This document shows, piece after piece, positions 2,377 to 40,789 of a DNA stretch of 64,000 nucleotides. The position numbers and the translations under genes are program-made. Under the pieces are notes generated by a model. The model did not search any database and was not told where the DNA came from. It saw only the letters and a list, made by a program, of their open reading frames with translations. Position 1 is the stretch's first letter; the number at the start of each line of letters is the position of its first letter. Origin of the DNA: Escherichia phage MX01; the sequence record NC_031934.1. One strand, 5' to 3'.

Positions 2377-3093
2377 ATGAATTATAAATCAATATACGAA
2401 AAGCTTATTCAACGAGCAGTTAATAGAAATTTAACTACCTATAAAGAACGTCATCACATTATACCACAATGCATGGGTGGAACGGACGACGCTTTAAACT
2501 TGGTAGACTTAACACCTGAAGAACATTACTTGGCTCATCAGTTGTTAGTTAAAATCCATCCAGATAATGCATCGTTAGTCTATGCGGCAAGAATGATGAC
2601 AGTTAGCTCACCAAAAGCTGATAGGTCTAAAAATAAATTATTTGGATGGCTTCGTCGTAAGAATTCAGAAGCCCAAAAGGATAAAGAATTCTCGGAAGAA
2701 ACCAGAAAGAAAATGTCAATTTCCGCTTTAAAAAAGCCTAGAGTTACCTGTCCACACTGCGGTAAAACTGGATTGGTAGGCAATATGAACAGATGGCATT
2801 TCGATAACTGCCCTAAAGGCCCTAATAAAGTAGACCGCTCTATATCTGAAGAGCAAAAATTAAAAATAAAGAAAGGCCTAGAAAACATGGTCCATAAAAT
2901 TGTGGAATGTGAATTCTGTGGCCTTTCAGGAAAATCCTGTGTTATTGCCTCTCATAAAGTTTTTTGTAAGAAAAATCCTAACGGGCGCAAAAAAACAGAA
3001 AAGAAGGTAGAATGCCCTCATTGTGGTAAACAAGGGAATTCCGGTAATATGAATCGTTGGCATTTCGATAACTGTAAAATGAAGCCTCAATAA
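2377..3093 (+). CDS. HNH homing endonuclease (mob-like) with NUMOD3 motif and two Cys4 zinc-ribbon repeats
   Basis: ERHHIIPQCMGGTDDALNLVDLTPEEHYLAH HNH motif; FSEETRKKMS NUMOD3; duplicated CPHCGK...NMNRWHFDNC; RBS AAGGA 6 nt upstream of ATG 2377; opposite strand to all neighbours. Confidence 0.8.
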   Translation: MNYKSIYEKLIQRAVNRNLTTYKERHHIIPQCMGGTDDALNLVDLTPEEHYLAHQLLVKIHPDNASLVYAARMMTVSSPKADRSKNKLFGWLRRKNSEAQKDKEFSEETRKKMSISALKKPRVTCPHCGKTGLVGNMNRWHFDNCPKGPNKVDRSISEEQKLKIKKGLENMVHKIVECEFCGLSGKSCVIASHKVFCKKNPNGRKKTEKKVECPHCGKQGNSGNMNRWHFDNCKMKPQ

Positions 3094-3098
3094 GAGGC

Positions 3099-4781
3099 TT
3101 ATTCCATAATTGTAAATCGACCAACCTTTTTCATTTGTAAATGCTGACCATATGCTTGAGGGTCATGGTCCCTGTGGCTGATTATAAAAACATTACTGTC
3201 TTCAAGACTATTAAGAATACTTGCAATCGACTTAACAGCCTCAGCGTCAACTGCTCCATCAAAAACTTCATCCAACACTAATGTACTAATGTGGACTCCA
3301 CTGACTTTTTCAGCAATATCACGCCAGGTAAAAAGTAGTGCGATATCAATACGTGCTTTCTCACCCTGTGAAAATGAAGCATAACTAAAGTCTTCACGTC
3401 CACGTGATTTAATCGTCTCATTGAACTCTTCGTCTAGTGTAAAGACGTAGTCGGCTTCCATAATCTTCAAATAAGAATTTATCTGCTTATTAAAGATAGG
3501 AATGTATTTCTTAATAATGGAACCTTTAATACCGGTATCCTTCAACATTTCTGTCAGAATTCCACGATGGTATTTTTCCATTACCAGGGACGATTTGGTA
3601 GAGACGATTTTATCAAGCTCTGCTTGAAGCGTGGCAATCTCTTCGGCATTACTTACGAACTCAGCAGCGGCTTGGTCTATTAATACTTTAACTTTTTTAG
3701 CTTTCTCTACGGCAGTAATGGCTTGTTGCTTATGAGTAGCTATCTGAGATTTAATAGCCAGCGCTTTATTACGTTGTTCGGTTACTTGGTCCTTAATGAG
3801 CTTGAGTTCTTGGTACTGCTCATTAATCTTATCCAAAGATTTTTGAAGTTCAAAGTTCTTGTCCTTAATTTTAGTAAGGATATTTCCATGCTCTTCTAAT
3901 CCTTGCATACACGTAGGACAACTACCACCGGTTTCGTATAATTTCACGACCTTAGTAAAGGTTGCCATATCATTCTTGATTGCAAACCCTTTATTACTCA
4001 GGTCACTCATAGAGTCGCTAGGGTCATCATCGACAATGACATTGAGTAATTCATCAGTTAGTTTTTCTATATTGCCTTTCGCAGTCCTGGCTTCTTTAAC
4101 GAGCTCGTCATACATTACTTGTAGTCGTGCTGCGTTCTCGCCGGATAATTTACGTTGACGTTCTTCGTTGTCATTATAAATTTTAATCTGTTGGGTAATA
4201 GAATCCTGTTTAACGTCGATTACTTGGATTTGGCTATTAGTCTCACGAATCAAAGATTTGTTCAACTTATCCATATCCGCTAATACAGAAACCTCTAAGA
4301 GGTCTTCGACAAGTTTTCTTCTTGCAGGAGTGGATAGGCCCATAAAAGGGGTATATCCAGCTGTCCCGAGTACGACAATCTGTTTGAAGCTTGTGTAGGA
4401 CATTCCGATAAGCTGTTCAAATTCCGCTTGGAAGTCTTTACTGCTGGCAGATTCATCAAGACGTTCACCGTCACAAGAGATTTCAAAAACGTTGGGTTTT
4501 TGCCCGCGTTTGATGTAGTATTCTTTGCCATCATATTCCATCCACAGTTCGACCAAAAGGTCTTTCTTATTACTTGAGTTAATCAACTGCCCTTTCTTAA
4601 CATCGCGAAAAGGCTTACCAAACAGAGCAAATGTTACGGCTTCAAGGAATGTTGATTTCCCTGCACCATTTTTACCAGTGACTAAGGTCTTTTGGACCTT
4701 ATCAAGTTGGATTGTAATAGGTTGCTGGCCTACCGACATAATATTTTTATACGTTACTTTCTTTAACTTAAAAGTCTTCAT
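3099..4781 (-). CDS. 46: recombination endonuclease subunit gp46 (SbcC/Rad50-like ATPase)
   Basis: Start at MKTFKLKK; Walker A GKNGAGKST, signature SQGEKARIDIALLF, Walker B LVLDEVFDG; length ~560 aa. Confidence 0.9.
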   Translation of the reverse strand: MKTFKLKKVTYKNIMSVGQQPITIQLDKVQKTLVTGKNGAGKSTFLEAVTFALFGKPFRDVKKGQLINSSNKKDLLVELWMEYDGKEYYIKRGQKPNVFEISCDGERLDESASSKDFQAEFEQLIGMSYTSFKQIVVLGTAGYTPFMGLSTPARRKLVEDLLEVSVLADMDKLNKSLIRETNSQIQVIDVKQDSITQQIKIYNDNEERQRKLSGENAARLQVMYDELVKEARTAKGNIEKLTDELLNVIVDDDPSDSMSDLSNKGFAIKNDMATFTKVVKLYETGGSCPTCMQGLEEHGNILTKIKDKNFELQKSLDKINEQYQELKLIKDQVTEQRNKALAIKSQIATHKQQAITAVEKAKKVKVLIDQAAAEFVSNAEEIATLQAELDKIVSTKSSLVMEKYHRGILTEMLKDTGIKGSIIKKYIPIFNKQINSYLKIMEADYVFTLDEEFNETIKSRGREDFSYASFSQGEKARIDIALLFTWRDIAEKVSGVHISTLVLDEVFDGAVDAEAVKSIASILNSLEDSNVFIISHRDHDPQAYGQHLQMKKVGRFTIME

Positions 4782-26644: not shown

Positions 26645-26944
26645 TTAGAAAGAACCAGAACCTCTAATTGTGTTCTGGCGACCTTTATTTTCTAATTCAT
26701 AGTCGTCGATTTCGTAGGCTTGTGCTACACCAAAAGCCTTTTTAACTTTAGCTAAAGAGCCTTTAGACGTAACAATATTAAAAGTATTACCTTTGGTAAA
26801 ATCAACCAAATCCACTTGTACACCCTGTTTACCGAGGCTTGCTACAATAGCATCAACATATTCCTGGTCTAAATTGCCTTGAACTCCAATTTGAAATACT
26901 TTAGGAGCTTTGGCTTCTGTAATAAATTCTTGGTAAGTTTTCAT
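26645..26944 (-). CDS. internal-protein-like capsid protein with N-terminal capsid targeting sequence
   Basis: Starts MKTYQEFITEA; paralog of ORF 39388..39696. Confidence 0.55.
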   Translation of the reverse strand: MKTYQEFITEAKAPKVFQIGVQGNLDQEYVDAIVASLGKQGVQVDLVDFTKGNTFNIVTSKGSLAKVKKAFGVAQAYEIDDYELENKGRQNTIRGSGSF

Positions 26945-26986
26945 ATTATTCCTTAAGTTGATAGAAGTATTCTATCACGGATTTAA

Positions 26987-27403
26987 TTAAGCGTAAATCG
27001 CCTTACCATAATGTTTGTACCAGGTAGGGCGCTGTGCAATTTTTTCGTCCAAACGGGCCTGTGAAATGGCGATAGAAGCTTCGTGAGGAACATAGTCACC
27101 ACGGAATTCCTGAGGAATATCACTAATGTCCCGGACCGTAGTGTCCTTGATATTAAAACCACGTTTTAAACATTCGGCTATAAGCTCGATTTGACGTTTA
27201 CGTAAAAATTCAAGCTTATCGTAAAAGAATGTAACATGACCTGTACCAAGGATAAAAGTAGGACTGATTTTGAAATCACGGACACGTTTACCATTAGCAA
27301 CATGCTTACGAACTGCACCGAAAACACGTGGTAATTCACGGTACTCAGCCATTAAGTGTTGGTCAGCCAATTCAGATACTAAGGTAAGGTTGATACGAGT
27401 CAT
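26987..27403 (-). CDS. denV: endonuclease V (pyrimidine-dimer DNA glycosylase) DenV
   Basis: 138 aa; [29 protein letters not shown]... very close to T4 DenV as recalled. Confidence 0.9.
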
Positions 27404-27432
27404 TTTAGTGTTCTCCGTGTTTGTATGAGAAC

Positions 27433-27461
27433 ACTATATCACAGCTGTTGTAAAAGTAAAC
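27433..27461 (-). promoter_or_regulatory. T4-type early promoter (GTTTAC, 17 bp, TATAGT)
   Basis: Minus-strand motif upstream of denV. Confidence 0.5.
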
Positions 27462-27463
27462 TG

Positions 27464-27766
27464 TTATTTAGCTTTAATTGCTTTAGCTGCTTCGGTAGCC
27501 GCTTGCTGAAGGTCATCCATAGACATACCGAACTTAGAAGCAAAGTTATCAATTTTCTTTTCGACAGAATTCAAAGGCTTGGCCTGTTTACCTTCATTAG
27601 CGCCAGGGAGAGCGAGAATACGCTCTTTGTCAATATAAAGGCTTACAAGTTTCTTACGGTCTTTATCTGGCAAATCATGAAATGAATGGGCCTTTTTATT
27701 TACGGCGGCTTCTAATTTACCCGCACTTACTCGCGCTTCGGTGATAAATTCTTGATAGGTTTTCAT
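27464..27766 (-). CDS. ipII: internal protein II-like (CTS-bearing)
   Basis: 100 aa; MKTYQEFITEA start; position between e and denV. Confidence 0.6.
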   Translation of the reverse strand: MKTYQEFITEARVSAGKLEAAVNKKAHSFHDLPDKDRKKLVSLYIDKERILALPGANEGKQAKPLNSVEKKIDNFASKFGMSMDDLQQAATEAAKAIKAK

Positions 27767-27807
27767 ATGGGTCCTTTAAATGTAAATAAGCCTAAGTATA
27801 GGCTTTA

Positions 27808-28404
27808 TTAATTACCACGGGCTGCATTAGCAACGGCGTAAGCGTACTGAATATTAGCGTCTTTAAACGTACCTTTAGAGGTATCTATTTCTGCCTTAAA
27901 GCCGCCTTTAGCCATAACATCAGCAAATTCTTTACGGAAAGTCATTGCATCAAGACCTTTCCATGTTGATTTGTGCTTGGCAAATTCAAGACCAGCGAAG
28001 TTGACAGCTTTAGCCAATTTATTATCAATAGTCCATTTACCTGCTTTAGGTACAAACACCGGGCCTTTCTGTTTAGAGAACAGTTTTAAATTCCAGCGAC
28101 GAAGGTCACCGTCAGCTTTAACAAAAGCTGCGTCCAAGTTACTAGCAACAACATCTTGGATATGGGCAAATTTAAGTCCATCAGCTTCAATATTTAGGTC
28201 GTTACGCCAGCGAAGTCCTTCCCAGGCGAAAGCTTTAAAGTCGGAAGCTTTTGTAGCCAAGTACCGTTCAATAGGAGCTGTTTTAGCGTCAAAACCGTTT
28301 CCTGGGTTGTCAACGCCGTTTCCTTTGTAAGTCCACTCATCTTTATTAATGCCTTGGACCTTTCCTACAGAAGCTTCGGCGATAAATTCTTTATACGTTT
28401 TCAT
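27808..28404 (-). CDS. ipIII: internal protein III-like (CTS-bearing)
   Basis: 198 aa; MKTYKEFIAEA start. Confidence 0.6.
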   Translation of the reverse strand: MKTYKEFIAEASVGKVQGINKDEWTYKGNGVDNPGNGFDAKTAPIERYLATKASDFKAFAWEGLRWRNDLNIEADGLKFAHIQDVVASNLDAAFVKADGDLRRWNLKLFSKQKGPVFVPKAGKWTIDNKLAKAVNFAGLEFAKHKSTWKGLDAMTFRKEFADVMAKGGFKAEIDTSKGTFKDANIQYAYAVANAARGN

Positions 28405-28457
28405 ATGGGTTCCTTAAAGGTAAATATTTTAATTGGTCTGTTCAAGTAACTGTAGAT

Positions 28458-28486
28458 ATACTATCACAATTCTAGGAGATGTAAAC
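28458..28486 (-). promoter_or_regulatory. T4-type early promoter (GTTTAC, 17 bp, TAGTAT)
   Basis: Minus-strand motif upstream of ipIII-like gene. Confidence 0.5.
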
Positions 28487-28885
28487 TTATTTATAGGTCT
28501 TCATCCAATTCTTGAACAAAGCCGCGACGTCTTTCTCTTTAACGTTCAGTTTAAGGTCTAACATTTTACCACCGGCAGCACGTGTCTGACGAATCTTAGC
28601 AGTACCGGTTTCGCCATTCCACTCAACATAATACTGTCCAGTGTTCATTGCAATACCATCGCCGTAGTCTTCATTTTTAGAAGTTGTGAAGGCCAGCTTC
28701 ATAGTCTTAGATACACGAGCCTGCATGCCAGTCTGAAGGGCATTACGAACGCGAATAACCTGAGGAGTGGCCTGGGTCAGGTTCTCATTCAGTTCTTCAG
28801 TGAACTCTTCAGATTCAAACATCGCCAAAAGTTCTTTAGATGCAGGAATTACATTCTCTGCGATAAATTCATTATAAGTTTTCAT
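28487..28885 (-). CDS. internal-protein-like protein (CTS-bearing)
   Basis: 132 aa; [10 protein letters not shown] start. Confidence 0.5.
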
Positions 28886-39318: not shown

Positions 39319-39346
39319 TTTATTCTCCTCAGTAGTTGATAGGGTA

Positions 39347-39376
39347 ATAGTATCACTACCCTATCTAAAAGTAAAC
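39347..39376 (-). promoter_or_regulatory. T4-type early promoter within GATAGGGTA/TACCCTATC inverted repeat
   Basis: Minus-strand motif. Confidence 0.45.
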
Positions 39377-39387
39377 GGTTTTATAAA

Positions 39388-39696
39388 CTATTTTATTCCG
39401 CGTGATGCAATCGTATTCTGCCGTTTAACGCCAGTTTGTTTAAAGTTATGATTGTCGAGTTGATCGGTACGAGCAACTCCGAATGATGATTTAATCTTAG
39501 CTTTAGATCCTTTAGTTATAGAAATATACATCTCGGGAGCCCCTTTCTTAAAGTCCGAAGCAATTACTTCAACACCGTTCTTAGCAAGTGACTTCAGAAT
39601 TGCTTCCGCATACTCATCATCAAGACCCGCTTGAGTATGAATAATGAATGTCTTTGGTGCAGCCGCTTCATTGATAAATTCTTGATATGTTTTCAT
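39388..39696 (-). CDS. internal-protein-like protein (CTS-bearing), IPI-locus type
   Basis: Start MKTYQEFINEA; paralog of 26645..26944. Confidence 0.55.
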   Translation of the reverse strand: MKTYQEFINEAAAPKTFIIHTQAGLDDEYAEAILKSLAKNGVEVIASDFKKGAPEMYISITKGSKAKIKSSFGVARTDQLDNHNFKQTGVKRQNTIASRGIK

Positions 39697-39730
39697 TTTG
39701 ATTTCCATTTAGTTTTGTTTTGATAGGGCT

Positions 39731-39760
39731 ATAGTATCACCACTAAAGCCCGTTGTAAAC
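39731..39760 (-). promoter_or_regulatory. T4-type early promoter (GTTTAC, 18 bp, TACTAT)
   Basis: Minus-strand motif. Confidence 0.5.
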
Positions 39761-39762
39761 AA

Positions 39763-40035
39763 TTATTTTAAATAAATTGCATACTTTTTATAACCAGCTG
39801 TTTCGTGACGTAGCCCTTTTTCATTAGCAAAACGTTCAATATTGTTAATTTGATTCTGGTCAAGTTCTGAAGTATCAAATACAAAAAAGTTTCGCTTATT
39901 GCCTAAAGTTACGTGATTAGTCAAATCGATGTTATAGAGATGATTTATATCATCAATCATAGTCTTAACAGATTTGTTAATTTTTACTTCCTCATTAAGA
40001 ATAGATTCAGCGATAAATTCTTGATAAGTTTTCAT
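39763..40035 (-). CDS. internal-protein-like protein (CTS-bearing)
   Basis: 90 aa; starts MKTYQEFIAE. Confidence 0.5.
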   Translation of the reverse strand: MKTYQEFIAESILNEEVKINKSVKTMIDDINHLYNIDLTNHVTLGNKRNFFVFDTSELDQNQINNIERFANEKGLRHETAGYKKYAIYLK

Positions 40036-40058
40036 TTTGATTTCCGTGCGGTTAGTTT

Positions 40059-40100
40059 GTTTACAAGGTCTATAGTATCATGCCTATAGACCTTGTAAAC
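40059..40100 (-). promoter_or_regulatory. perfectly palindromic early promoter element (PeSL-like)
   Basis: GTTTACAAGGTCTATAG-tatcatgc-CTATAGACCTTGTAAAC, 17-bp perfect inverted repeat. Confidence 0.55.
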
Positions 40101-40111
40101 ACCTTTTTAAA

Positions 40112-40789
<678 letters not shown>

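Follow-up and report, generated by a model that had tools for sequence, protein, structure and literature searches.

Six tagged open reading frames of Escherichia phage MX01 probably encode T4-type internal proteins

The six open reading frames (ORFs) of Escherichia phage MX01 which start with the decapeptide MKTY(Q/K/N)EFI(A/T/N)E, all on the minus strand of the window (the whole 64 kb stretch of DNA analysed here), very probably encode internal proteins (Ips) of the T4 type. As part of the same, equally probable explanation, their genes behave as cassettes which are swapped between slots and phages inside two hyperplastic loci. The mechanism is established for T4 and is transferred here by analogy. 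While the prohead assembles, the capsid targeting sequence (CTS) of ten residues would bind the scaffolding core (gp22/gp67/gp68); a cut by the prohead protease gp21 after Glu10 (I-x-E) would then free the mature protein inside the head. Some hundreds of copies would share the head with the DNA and, on ejection, would reach the cell together with the genome or before it, acting before any phage gene expression. The cargo part behind the tag would be interchangeable, and promoter/hairpin elements appear to flank the cassettes. The most likely role of the IpII and IpIII orthologues is to bind, and so block, specific type IV restriction enzymes of the GmrSD family which cleave sugar-modified cytosine DNA; Ip7, an Ip7-like paralogue, Ip9 and an unnamed protein of 132 residues are most likely further inhibitors of narrow specificity, directed against first-response defences.

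Descriptions of internal proteins as a principle, of their tag and of the two hypervariable loci go back to the 1990s; how Ip1, Ip2 and Ip3 function was established in work from 2007 to 2025. Reading the six ORFs as internal proteins is supported and follows what is already known (Repoila 1994; Rao & Black 2010; Silas 2025). The addition made here is a modest one and includes the catalogue for one Dhakavirus, which comprises IpII, IpIII, Ip7 twice, Ip9 and one unnamed family.

The shared tag and the bodies behind it

A six-frame regular-expression search, together with two looser patterns, found no tag-bearing ORF in the 64 kb window beyond these six (Table 1), which confirms the initial observation of six frames opening with a near-invariant decapeptide. 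At the DNA level, the degenerate pattern ATGAARACNTAYMANGARTTYATHNNNGAR had six matches in the window and none in 100 dinucleotide-preserving shuffles (mean 0.00, max 0). Positions 1-4, 6-8 and 10 of the tag are invariant in all six proteins, variation being limited to positions 5 (Q/K/N) and 9 (A/T/N). The corresponding residues of IPIII were mapped by amber-suppressor mutagenesis: residues 4 and 7 of the CTS serve targeting, residues 8 and 10 serve processing, gp21 cuts after L/I-x-E, and Asp10 blocks processing (PMC9026906). All six tags retain Y4 and F7 for targeting as well as I8 and E10 for processing, which belong to the gp21 site L/I-x-E at the tag end, and none of them carries Asp10. 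With these key residues in place, and with MKTYQEFIAE at the start of both T4 IpII and T4 IpIII, the identification of the shared N-terminus as the T4 capsid targeting sequence, proposed in the sequence-only reading, is supported.

Behind the tag, the proteins have little in common. An all-versus-all BLASTP comparison from residue 11 to the end returned a single related pair, the Ip7-like protein and Ip7 (47% identity over 90 aa, E 3e-22), and E > 2 for each remaining pair, so that the claim of bodies unrelated save for this pair stands as well. Searches of all six proteins against Pfam and NCBIfam gave nothing above thresholds, and five of the six matched PHROG families of the 'internal head/virion protein' kind, with E from 2e-41 to 3e-115. 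Depletion of internal L/I-x-E sites was used as an indirect sign of exposure of the cargo bodies to gp21; it was significant neither in the six bodies (2 sites observed versus 4.7 expected, P 0.12) nor in 54 family representatives (30 versus 36.9 expected, z -1.25).

Two of the six are orthologues of T4 proteins. The IpII orthologue shares 94% of its amino acids with T4 IpII over 100 residues (94.7% of the nucleotides), and the IpIII orthologue shares 87% with T4 IpIII over 198/193 residues, from which it differs by a 5-residue insertion near the N-terminus. Unlike the other four, both show full-length homology to Ips with proven targets. Three more are PHROG internal head proteins and correspond to Ip7 or Ip9 in relatives: Ip7 is 95-96% identical to the 'Ip7 gene product' of WG01, and Ip9, whose relatives are named ip9/Ip9 in RB32, VR20, VR25 and RB15, is 95-96% identical to Ip9 of WG01 and about 80% to those of RB32 and VR20. 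The Ip7-like protein, a paralogue of Ip7, is the equivalent of JS98 orf112 (93% nucleotide identity), and its counterpart in UGJNEcP3 is annotated 'internal head protein'. An in-frame ATG at 39708 (MEIK-MKTY...), upstream of the Ip7 start, falls within the Shine-Dalgarno region; homologues of this ORF are annotated from the MKTY/MKSY start and not from the upstream ATG.

Structure prediction of the bodies, which the sequence-only reading had suggested, gave a usable model in one case and not in another. The AF2 model of Ip7 (pLDDT 77, about 90 in the core) presents a ferredoxin/ACT-like beta-alpha-beta-beta-alpha-beta topology, for which Foldseek against PDB and BFVD returned Ip7 itself and generic ferredoxin/ACT-like matches (E about 1e-3, TM 0.4-0.5) from which no function could be deduced, and the model of the 132-residue protein, built on a 12-sequence alignment, had a mean pLDDT of 54 and was too poor for a fold search. 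Sequence searches of the PDB yielded no meaningful match for Ip7 or for the IpIII orthologue.

Table 1. Tagged ORFs, putative promoter elements and denV at the two loci (positions in the window).
Feature	Position	Strand	Length	CTS	PHROG match	Location and remarks
Ip7-like internal protein	26645..26944	-	99 aa	MKTYQEFITE	phrog_2667 'internal head protein', E 2e-42	between vs.8 and denV
denV	26987-27403			no tag		inside interval 26645-28885
IpII orthologue	27464..27766	-	100 aa	MKTYQEFITE	phrog_7857, E 3e-54	
IpIII orthologue	27808..28404	-	198 aa	MKTYKEFIAE	phrog_5341, E 3e-115	
T4 late-promoter consensus TATAAATA, then early-type promoter GTTTAC-N-TGATAGTAT	28458..28495	-				upstream of ipIII
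Unnamed CTS-bearing protein	28487..28885	-	132 aa		phrog_15461 'unknown function', E 1.5e-91	
PeSL-like promoter and hairpin	39319..39387	-				downstream of Ip7, upstream of trna.4; -16.4 kcal/mol, z -2.86
Ip7	39388..39696	-	102 aa	MKTYQEFINE	phrog_2667, E 2e-41	classical ipI locus
PeSL-like promoter and hairpin	39697..39762	-				between Ip9 and Ip7; -16.7 kcal/mol, z -3.35
Ip9	39763..40035	-	90 aa	MKTYQEFIAE	phrog_7673, E 2e-56	classical ipI locus
Early-type promoter GTTTACA...TGATACTAT in 18-bp hairpin, PeSL-like	40036..40111	-				upstream of Ip9; -28.5 kcal/mol, z -6.8

Loci, relatives and flanking promoters

The window comes from a Dhakavirus of the JS98 kind which shares about 96% identity with sequenced phages, and the six genes occupy both classical T-even internal-protein loci, vs.8–denV–e and 57B–trna.4, in a gene order which matches that of T4, JS98, WG01 and UGJNEcP3. 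Since the protease and scaffold genes lie beyond the end of the window, their presence was judged by proxy from UGJNEcP3, the nearest relative with the same locus (96% identical to the window across it), in which genes are annotated for the portal, for core proteins of the gp67/68 type, and for the head maturation protease, scaffold and major head protein.

The family had been described as expanded, which holds in comparison with T4 and its three genes but not in comparison with WG01, a phage of the same genus which carries eight CTS genes in the same two loci, or with Bas37, where at least four lie within 10 kb around the ipI locus; given the eight genes of WG01, six tagged genes are not unusual. 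The occupancy of the slots changes between close relatives: ipII is absent from WG01, where four other CTS genes are present, and the gene of the 132-residue protein takes the ipII slot in JS98 and lies between ipIII and e in WG01 and in the window. Ip7 and Ip9 occupy the slot between 57B and trna.4, as they do in T-even/RB phages (e.g., UniProt Q38376, 'Ip9' of phage RB15), whose hyperplastic ipI locus was described by Repoila et al. 1994 (as cited in PMC12373910); the phage studied here differs in having, between vs.8 and denV at the other locus, a further Ip7-like copy of 47% identity. A recent import of denV-ipII-ipIII from a Tequatrovirus was also considered and rejected: denV and ipIII of JS98 are equally about 90% identical to T4, and the block is therefore conserved across genera and not peculiar to this phage.

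The elements found between the genes resemble the mobile cassettes of promoter and stem-loop known from T4-type phages as PeSLs (Arbiol et al. 2010; Comeau et al. 2014; PMC2839356, PMC4122927). Three intergenic regions of the ipI locus have the attributes of a PeSL, i.e., an early promoter of the sigma-70 type, here GTTTAC-N-TGATACTAT, in or next to a stable stem-loop and flanking variable ORFs. As in PeSL cassettes, early promoters of the TTTACW-N17-TAYWAT type in hairpins flank variable ip genes, and one cassette junction falls at a GTTTAC element. Upstream of ipIII, the promoter is present and the fold is not significant (z 0.47). In JS98 and T4, gene e is directly followed by the same promoter block, whose late promoter in the window, TATAAATA at 28495-28488, overlaps the stop codon of the ORF for the 132-residue protein.

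Probable anti-defence function and competing explanations

The best studied members of the group are those of T4. For Ip1, Ip2 and Ip3 there is one inhibited GmrSD variant each and no cross-protection; work of 2025 identified Ip2 and Ip3 as injected inhibitors of different GmrSD type IV restriction enzymes, the GmrSD of ECOR21 for Ip2 and the two-gene GmrSD of ECOR17 for Ip3, and Silas et al. obtained no new pairs when ten ip genes were set against five further GmrSD systems (PMC12373910). On ECOR17 the phage needs IPIII, which remains active without its CTS if it is expressed by the host (PMC9391042). The MX01 orthologues of IpII and IpIII have the same locus, order and strand as in T4, with a tag which is identical or one residue off, and by orthology they may also share CTS packaging, the gp21 cut after E10, injection, and the inhibition of GmrSD(ECOR21) and GmrSD(ECOR17), respectively. 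They differ in the type of phage which carries them: a Dhakavirus, whose cytosine modification is predicted to be arabinosylated 5-hydroxycytosine rather than glucosyl-hmC (PMC13326640), and for this reason their targets may not be those of the T4 proteins. The suggestion that the set consists of injected, potentially anti-defence cargo thus finds support in homology, T4 Ip1, Ip2 and Ip3 each blocking a different GmrSD, and it is by homology that we infer packaging, cleavage and anti-defence activity for the six. Our searches of the literature found no virion proteome, N-terminal sequencing or genetics for this phage, JS98 or other Dhakaviruses, and nothing usable on the function of Ip7 or Ip9.

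For the four uncharacterised proteins, a functional model is provided by T4 IPI*, the inhibitor of GmrSD CT596, and by Bas37_0260, a CTS protein of the ipI locus which inhibits McrBC (bioRxiv 10.1101/2025.11.20.689424). Both are CTS-tagged, injected inhibitors of type IV restriction encoded at the ipI locus, but neither has body homology to any of the six. When the Ip7-like protein, the 132-residue protein, Ip7 and Ip9 were compared with T4 Ip1-3, no body-only match fell below E about 0.3, and comparison with full-length Bas37_0260 (gene taken from Bas37, KarlGJung, MZ501089) gave only weak matches starting at the shared tag. The identity of Ip7 or Ip9 with this McrBC inhibitor was rejected, body homology being absent. 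More distant parallels are the proteins of phiKZ/SPN3US heads, gp7/16/20 of P22 and the T7 core, which likewise travel in the head and enter the host on ejection, those of the phiKZ-like phages being cut after Glu by a gp21-related protease; however, these ejection or inner-body proteins share no tag, are much larger and play different roles, e.g., as trans-envelope conduit or inner body.

It is improbable that the six are mainly structural, i.e., basic, histone-like proteins of the head core which help assembly, neutralisation of DNA charge or packaging, anti-defence activity being secondary or absent for most of them. The mature bodies are mainly basic, with a pI of 8.2-9.7 in five of the six, and much is known from T4 which would agree with such a role: heads contain about 360 copies of each Ip, Ips co-purify with gp22, without IPIII the heads form half as fast, the burst is 40% and polyheads are more numerous (PMC9026906), and internal-protein lysines contact DNA phosphates (PMC3012670). 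The effect of IPIII on head assembly means that the function of Ips need not be wholly anti-defence. However, T4 can do without its Ip genes on laboratory hosts (PMC9026906), each of them has a specific restriction-enzyme target, and the rescue of infection by CTS-less IPIII expressed from the host places its action in the cytoplasm. Neither the unrelated folds, nor the presence and absence among close relatives, nor the hyperplastic loci are predicted by a structural role, and the mature body of Ip9 is near neutral (pI 6.8).

Two further explanations are less probable still, and about equally so. According to one, the shared 30-nt start is kept as DNA or RNA, e.g., as a hotspot of recombination or an element of translation initiation, and in some or all of the four non-T4 families the peptide does nothing for packaging. 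Tag-coding sequence does lie at the boundaries of cassettes which move between slots, homologous recombination through it is plausible, and homologues of the Ip9 body exist without CTS in other phage families. Against this, the codons of invariant residues vary synonymously (ACA/ACC/ACG/ACT for Thr3, TAC/TAT for Tyr4, ATC/ATT for Ile8 and GAA/GAG for Glu10), which argues that the tag is conserved as a protein and that it is the peptide rather than the DNA which is under selection; the invariant residues are those functionally mapped in IPIII, and the tag is retained in at least 163 unique proteins belonging to at least 61 body families in an IMG/VR sample. According to the other, some of the six, e.g., the second Ip7-like copy or the ORF of the 132-residue protein, are decaying duplicates or unexpressed ORFs. 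That ORF starts within the last 14 nt of the lysozyme gene e, and the short stretch in front of it contains no separate promoter; nor was a TATAAATA late promoter found directly upstream of four genes of the set. But co-transcription with upstream genes is normal in T4, and all the ORFs are full length and conserved intact in many phages, the 132-residue protein in 48 records from four host genera with 29 invariant alignment columns and the Ip7-like copy in JS98. The Ip7 paralogues, 47% identical with core positions conserved, have moreover diverged under constraint.

As injected T4-type internal proteins, the six would be the phage's first counter-measure against restriction, because they would act before any phage gene is transcribed. 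Every Ip family is a candidate for the inhibition of one particular host defence, and the set would thereby be useful for predicting host range and for choosing therapy phages, and the cargo domain of Ip9, found without tag in unrelated phages, illustrates the tag as a portable address label.

The family without a database name

Only one of the six families, that of the 132-residue protein, is still without a database name. The protein is a 'hypothetical protein' in every named database match and in all of the 40 phage records listed, out of the 48 which contain it. The family occurs in T4-like genera other than Tequatrovirus (Dhakavirus, Marfa-like Klebsiella phages, Serratia 4S and Erwinia Cronus). 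Among 12 aligned homologues from phages of Escherichia, Klebsiella and Serratia, the tag is present in all and the invariant columns include M1, K2, Y4, F7, E10 and E34. The last of these belongs to a second conserved site, L-N-E34, which follows an acidic segment (residues 11-34). T4 IPI has a diverged propeptide of 19 residues, MKTFKEFTS...ITE, and among the proteins studied here only this one may match it in length, by means of L-N-E34. We raise, as a tentative and rather doubtful proposal, that it represents an unrecognised family of internal proteins, packaged through the tag and cut at E10 and at L/I-N-E34, which would lose an acidic propeptide of 34 residues and leave a basic mature protein of 98 aa (pI 9.9), injected against a defence specific to its non-Tequatrovirus T4-like genera. 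The family warrants annotation as a putative internal protein.

The C-terminus of this protein reads ...WMKTYK*, reminiscent of the start of the tag, and divergent members of the family end in WMKTHK, WMKSYK or WMKTHAK; because the motif is conserved in these members, it belongs to the protein proper. That it began as the remnant of a CTS start, left behind after recombination, was considered as its origin, and the comparison spoke neither for nor against this idea. As a separate observation, several of the genera in which the family occurs are predicted to carry DNA with arabinosylated 5-hydroxycytosine.

The tagged genes and their two loci

A sequence-only reading of this DNA had described six ORFs that open with the ten-residue capsid targeting sequence (CTS, or tag) MKTY(Q/K/N)EFI(A/T/N)E, and all six are real and lie on the minus strand at the claimed positions (see the table). 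Scanning all six frames of the 64 kb window with the strict motif, and again with two looser versions, returned these six ORFs and nothing else; the degenerate coding pattern ATGAARACNTAYMANGARTTYATHNNNGAR gave 6 matches, whereas 100 shuffles that preserved dinucleotides led to an expectation of 0.00. Residues 1-4, 6-8 and 10 of the tag are invariant in all six, variation being confined to positions 5 (Q/K/N) and 9 (A/T/N). Its conserved codons differ at synonymous sites, with four codons in use for Thr and two each for Tyr, Ile and Glu, so the tag is conserved at the peptide and not at the DNA level. The bodies (residues 11 to end) are unrelated, as had been claimed, except for the 26645/39388 pair (BLASTP, 47% identity, E 3e-22); every other pair gave E > 2. 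None of the six proteins has a Pfam or NCBIfam model.

Coordinates of the features discussed
Feature	Record	Position	Strand
Ip7-like gene	window	26645-26944	-
ipII	window	27464-27766	-
ipIII	window	27808-28404	-
132-aa gene	window	28487-28885	-
Ip7 gene	window	39388-39696	-
Ip9 gene	window	39763-40035	-
57B	window	40112-40567	-
denV-ipII-ipIII	window	26987-28404	
denV-ipII-ipIII	T4 (L004)	2940-4416	
132-aa protein, residues 1-34	window	28784-28885	-
132-aa protein, C-terminal end	window	28487-28504	-
In-frame ATG ahead of Ip7	window	39697-39708	-
132-aa gene	JS98 (L003)	1996-2394	
ORF146, ORF147	WG01 (L002)	2436-2945	
ORF114, ORF115	WG01 (L005)	1033-1658	
bas37_0243, bas37_0244	Bas37 (L128)	29-1191	
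Tagless Ip9-body homologue	L129	1504-1722	
Tagless Ip9-body homologue	L130	1-1743	

The window comes from a T4-type Dhakavirus (Straboviridae) resembling JS98; Escherichia phage UGJNEcP3 and Salmonella phage SHP1 are ~96% identical to it over the first locus. Gene order (vs.8, Ip7-like, denV, ipII, ipIII, the 132-aa ORF, the lysozyme gene e and nudE at locus A; trna.4, Ip7, Ip9, 57B, 57A and gene 1 at locus B) matches these loci to the two internal-protein (Ip) loci of T4. The window ends in neck/tail-completion genes and the head genes therefore fall outside it; UGJNEcP3 encodes the portal, core proteins, head maturation protease, scaffold and major head protein.

In close relatives, five of the six already carry an internal-protein annotation. 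Two are orthologues of T4 IpII (94% aa, 94.7% nt identity) and IpIII (87% aa identity), and those of locus B are 95-96% identical to the WG01 genes named Ip7 and Ip9, the latter name being also used in RB32, VR20, VR25 and RB15. The ORF at 26645 also falls in the Ip7 family (phrog_2667, E 2e-42), as a diverged second member. The denV-ipII-ipIII region is 89-95% identical to T4 in nucleotides and identity is much lower in the genes on either side (e 75%, nudE 62%, vs.8 51%); JS98 compared with T4 gives the same pattern, of a conserved cross-genus block amid an otherwise diverged region. At the other locus, the GGAAAT Shine-Dalgarno region of Ip7 contains an in-frame ATG, four codons ahead of the start (MEIK-MKTY), from which mechanical ORF callers would lengthen the gene and mask its N-terminal tag.

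Size and novelty of the set

The observation is confirmed. Its T4-type interpretation is supported by homology and is already known, since the literature states explicitly that T-even phages carry highly diverse injected defence proteins with only the CTS in common (PMC3012670; PMC12373910, both citing Repoila et al. 1994). The set had also been called expanded, which holds only relative to T4 with its three Ips. In the same genus, WG01 carries eight CTS ORFs across these two loci, among them four families absent from the window; JS98 has three at locus A, and a 10 kb stretch around the ipI locus of Bas37 (KarlGJung) contains at least four. A scan of IMG/VR returned at least 120 loci encoding at least 163 unique CTS proteins in at least 61 body families, and among the matches listed several ~170 kb genomes carry four or five strict CTS matches. 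From these counts, six per genome is ordinary for Tevenvirinae.

Further CTS ORFs are called hypothetical in WG01 (ORF146, ORF147, ORF114 and ORF115) and in Bas37, where bas37_0243 and bas37_0244, of 187 and 157 aa with the tags MKTYAEFLTE and MKSYTQFLNE, form a third site, upstream of the tRNA cluster. These cases suggest widespread under-annotation of Ip genes. In IMG/VR, exact matches to the CTS coding sequence turn up on metagenomic contigs that far exceed T4-like genomes in size (e.g., L013, 247 kb; L047, 210 kb; L040, 199 kb) and start proteins of up to 610 aa (L035), which are only candidate CTS cargo of jumbo T4 relatives.

Probable function and origin of the cargo

In T4, IPIII needs no more than its first ten residues to enter the prohead core, with targeting controlled by positions 4 and 7 and processing by positions 8 and 10; gp21 cleaves after Glu in L/I-x-E, and each Ip is packaged at about 360 copies and ejected along with the DNA (PMC9026906; PMC3012670). 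By every sequence criterion tested, the six genes belong to this system and would work like it. The tag with its critical residues and cleavage motif, the orthology of two proteins and family membership of three more, the synteny and the assembly machinery present in the nearest relative are shown here, and from them packaging, cleavage and injection of all six in MX01 are inferred.

The known targets are restriction enzymes: IPI* inhibits GmrSD of strain CT596, Ip2 that of ECOR21 and Ip3 the two-gene GmrSD of ECOR17, with no cross-protection among them (PMC12373910; PMC9391042), and a fourth CTS protein, Bas37_0260, inhibits McrBC (bioRxiv 10.1101/2025.11.20.689424). A test by Silas et al. 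of ten ip genes on five additional GmrSD systems yielded no further pairs (PMC12373910). Dhakaviruses are predicted to have arabinosylated 5-hydroxycytosine instead of glucosyl-hmC (PMC13326640), so the enzymes relevant to the IpII and IpIII orthologues may differ from those of T4. The four proteins without a characterised homologue would presumably be anti-defence proteins as well. Comparison with Bas37_0260 showed that neither Ip7 nor Ip9 is this McrBC inhibitor. Next to the ipI-locus cassettes lies 57B (84% aa identity to T4 57B), labelled anti-CBASS protein Acb1 or cyclic phosphodiesterase in some relatives, which makes this locus an anti-defence neighbourhood beyond the Ips.

Structure prediction, proposed earlier for each body, gave a usable model for Ip7 (pLDDT 77, core about 90), with a beta-alpha-beta-beta-alpha-beta ferredoxin/ACT-like fold that returned generic matches only in fold searches; the model of the 132-aa protein was of unusable quality. 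The Ip9 body is also found without the tag: as a 72-aa protein (about 51% identity) beside the replicative helicase of the Guernseyvirinae siphovirus M01, as the C-terminal domain of a protein of more than 580 aa in Ackermannviridae (ChubbyThor gp130), and as the C-terminus of an 861-aa representative-library protein (P0055). These tagless bodies fit a view of the tag as a portable address label added to domains that already existed. The 77-aa 'ip7 protein' of Escherichia phage OLB35 (P0047) shares 86% identity with the N-terminal 43% of Ip7 and 75% with the C-terminal 36 residues of Ip9, and is apparently a chimera of Ip7 and Ip9 that arose by rearrangement inside the ipI locus.

Cassettes and the 132-aa family

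The remaining gene matches phrog_15461 ('unknown function'), and its product is a 'hypothetical protein' in every named database match and in all 40 phage records listed among the 48 that hold it. An alignment of 12 homologues from phages of Escherichia, Klebsiella and Serratia shows M1, K2, Y4, F7 and E10 in every one, and this family, the only unannotated element, is probably a new member of the internal-protein kind. Its position is variable: between ipIII and e in the window and WG01, it takes the ipII slot between denV and ipIII in JS98, which has no ipII. A GTTTAC early-promoter element directly follows its stop codon in all three phages, and the downstream sequence is the promoter block found directly after gene e in JS98 and T4. 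In the window its start and the end of e overlap by 14 nt, the product of e ending AYENL* (AYKNL* in T4, AAYR* in JS98). At locus B, each intergenic region holds a GTTTAC-N-TGATACTAT promoter within a strong hairpin (z -6.8, -3.35 and -2.86), matching the PeSL mobile regulatory cassettes of T4-type phages (PMC2839356, PMC4122927).

All members of the 132-aa family conserve a second L/I-N-E motif at residue 34, and the segment ahead of it is acidic (7 D/E, 1 K/R), indel-prone and deleted in Serratia-type homologues. This suggests, as a prediction only, that cleavage at this motif would release a long propeptide, analogous to the 19-residue one of T4 IPI, and leave a basic 98-aa mature form (pI 9.9). 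At its other end the protein finishes ...NWMKTYK*, and its DNA there, ATGAAGACCTATAAATAA, looks like the start of a CTS and includes, just upstream of ipIII, the T4 late-promoter consensus TATAAATA. Divergent homologues keep the WMKT(Y/H)K ending, which may therefore be a real C-terminal helix rather than a recombination scar.
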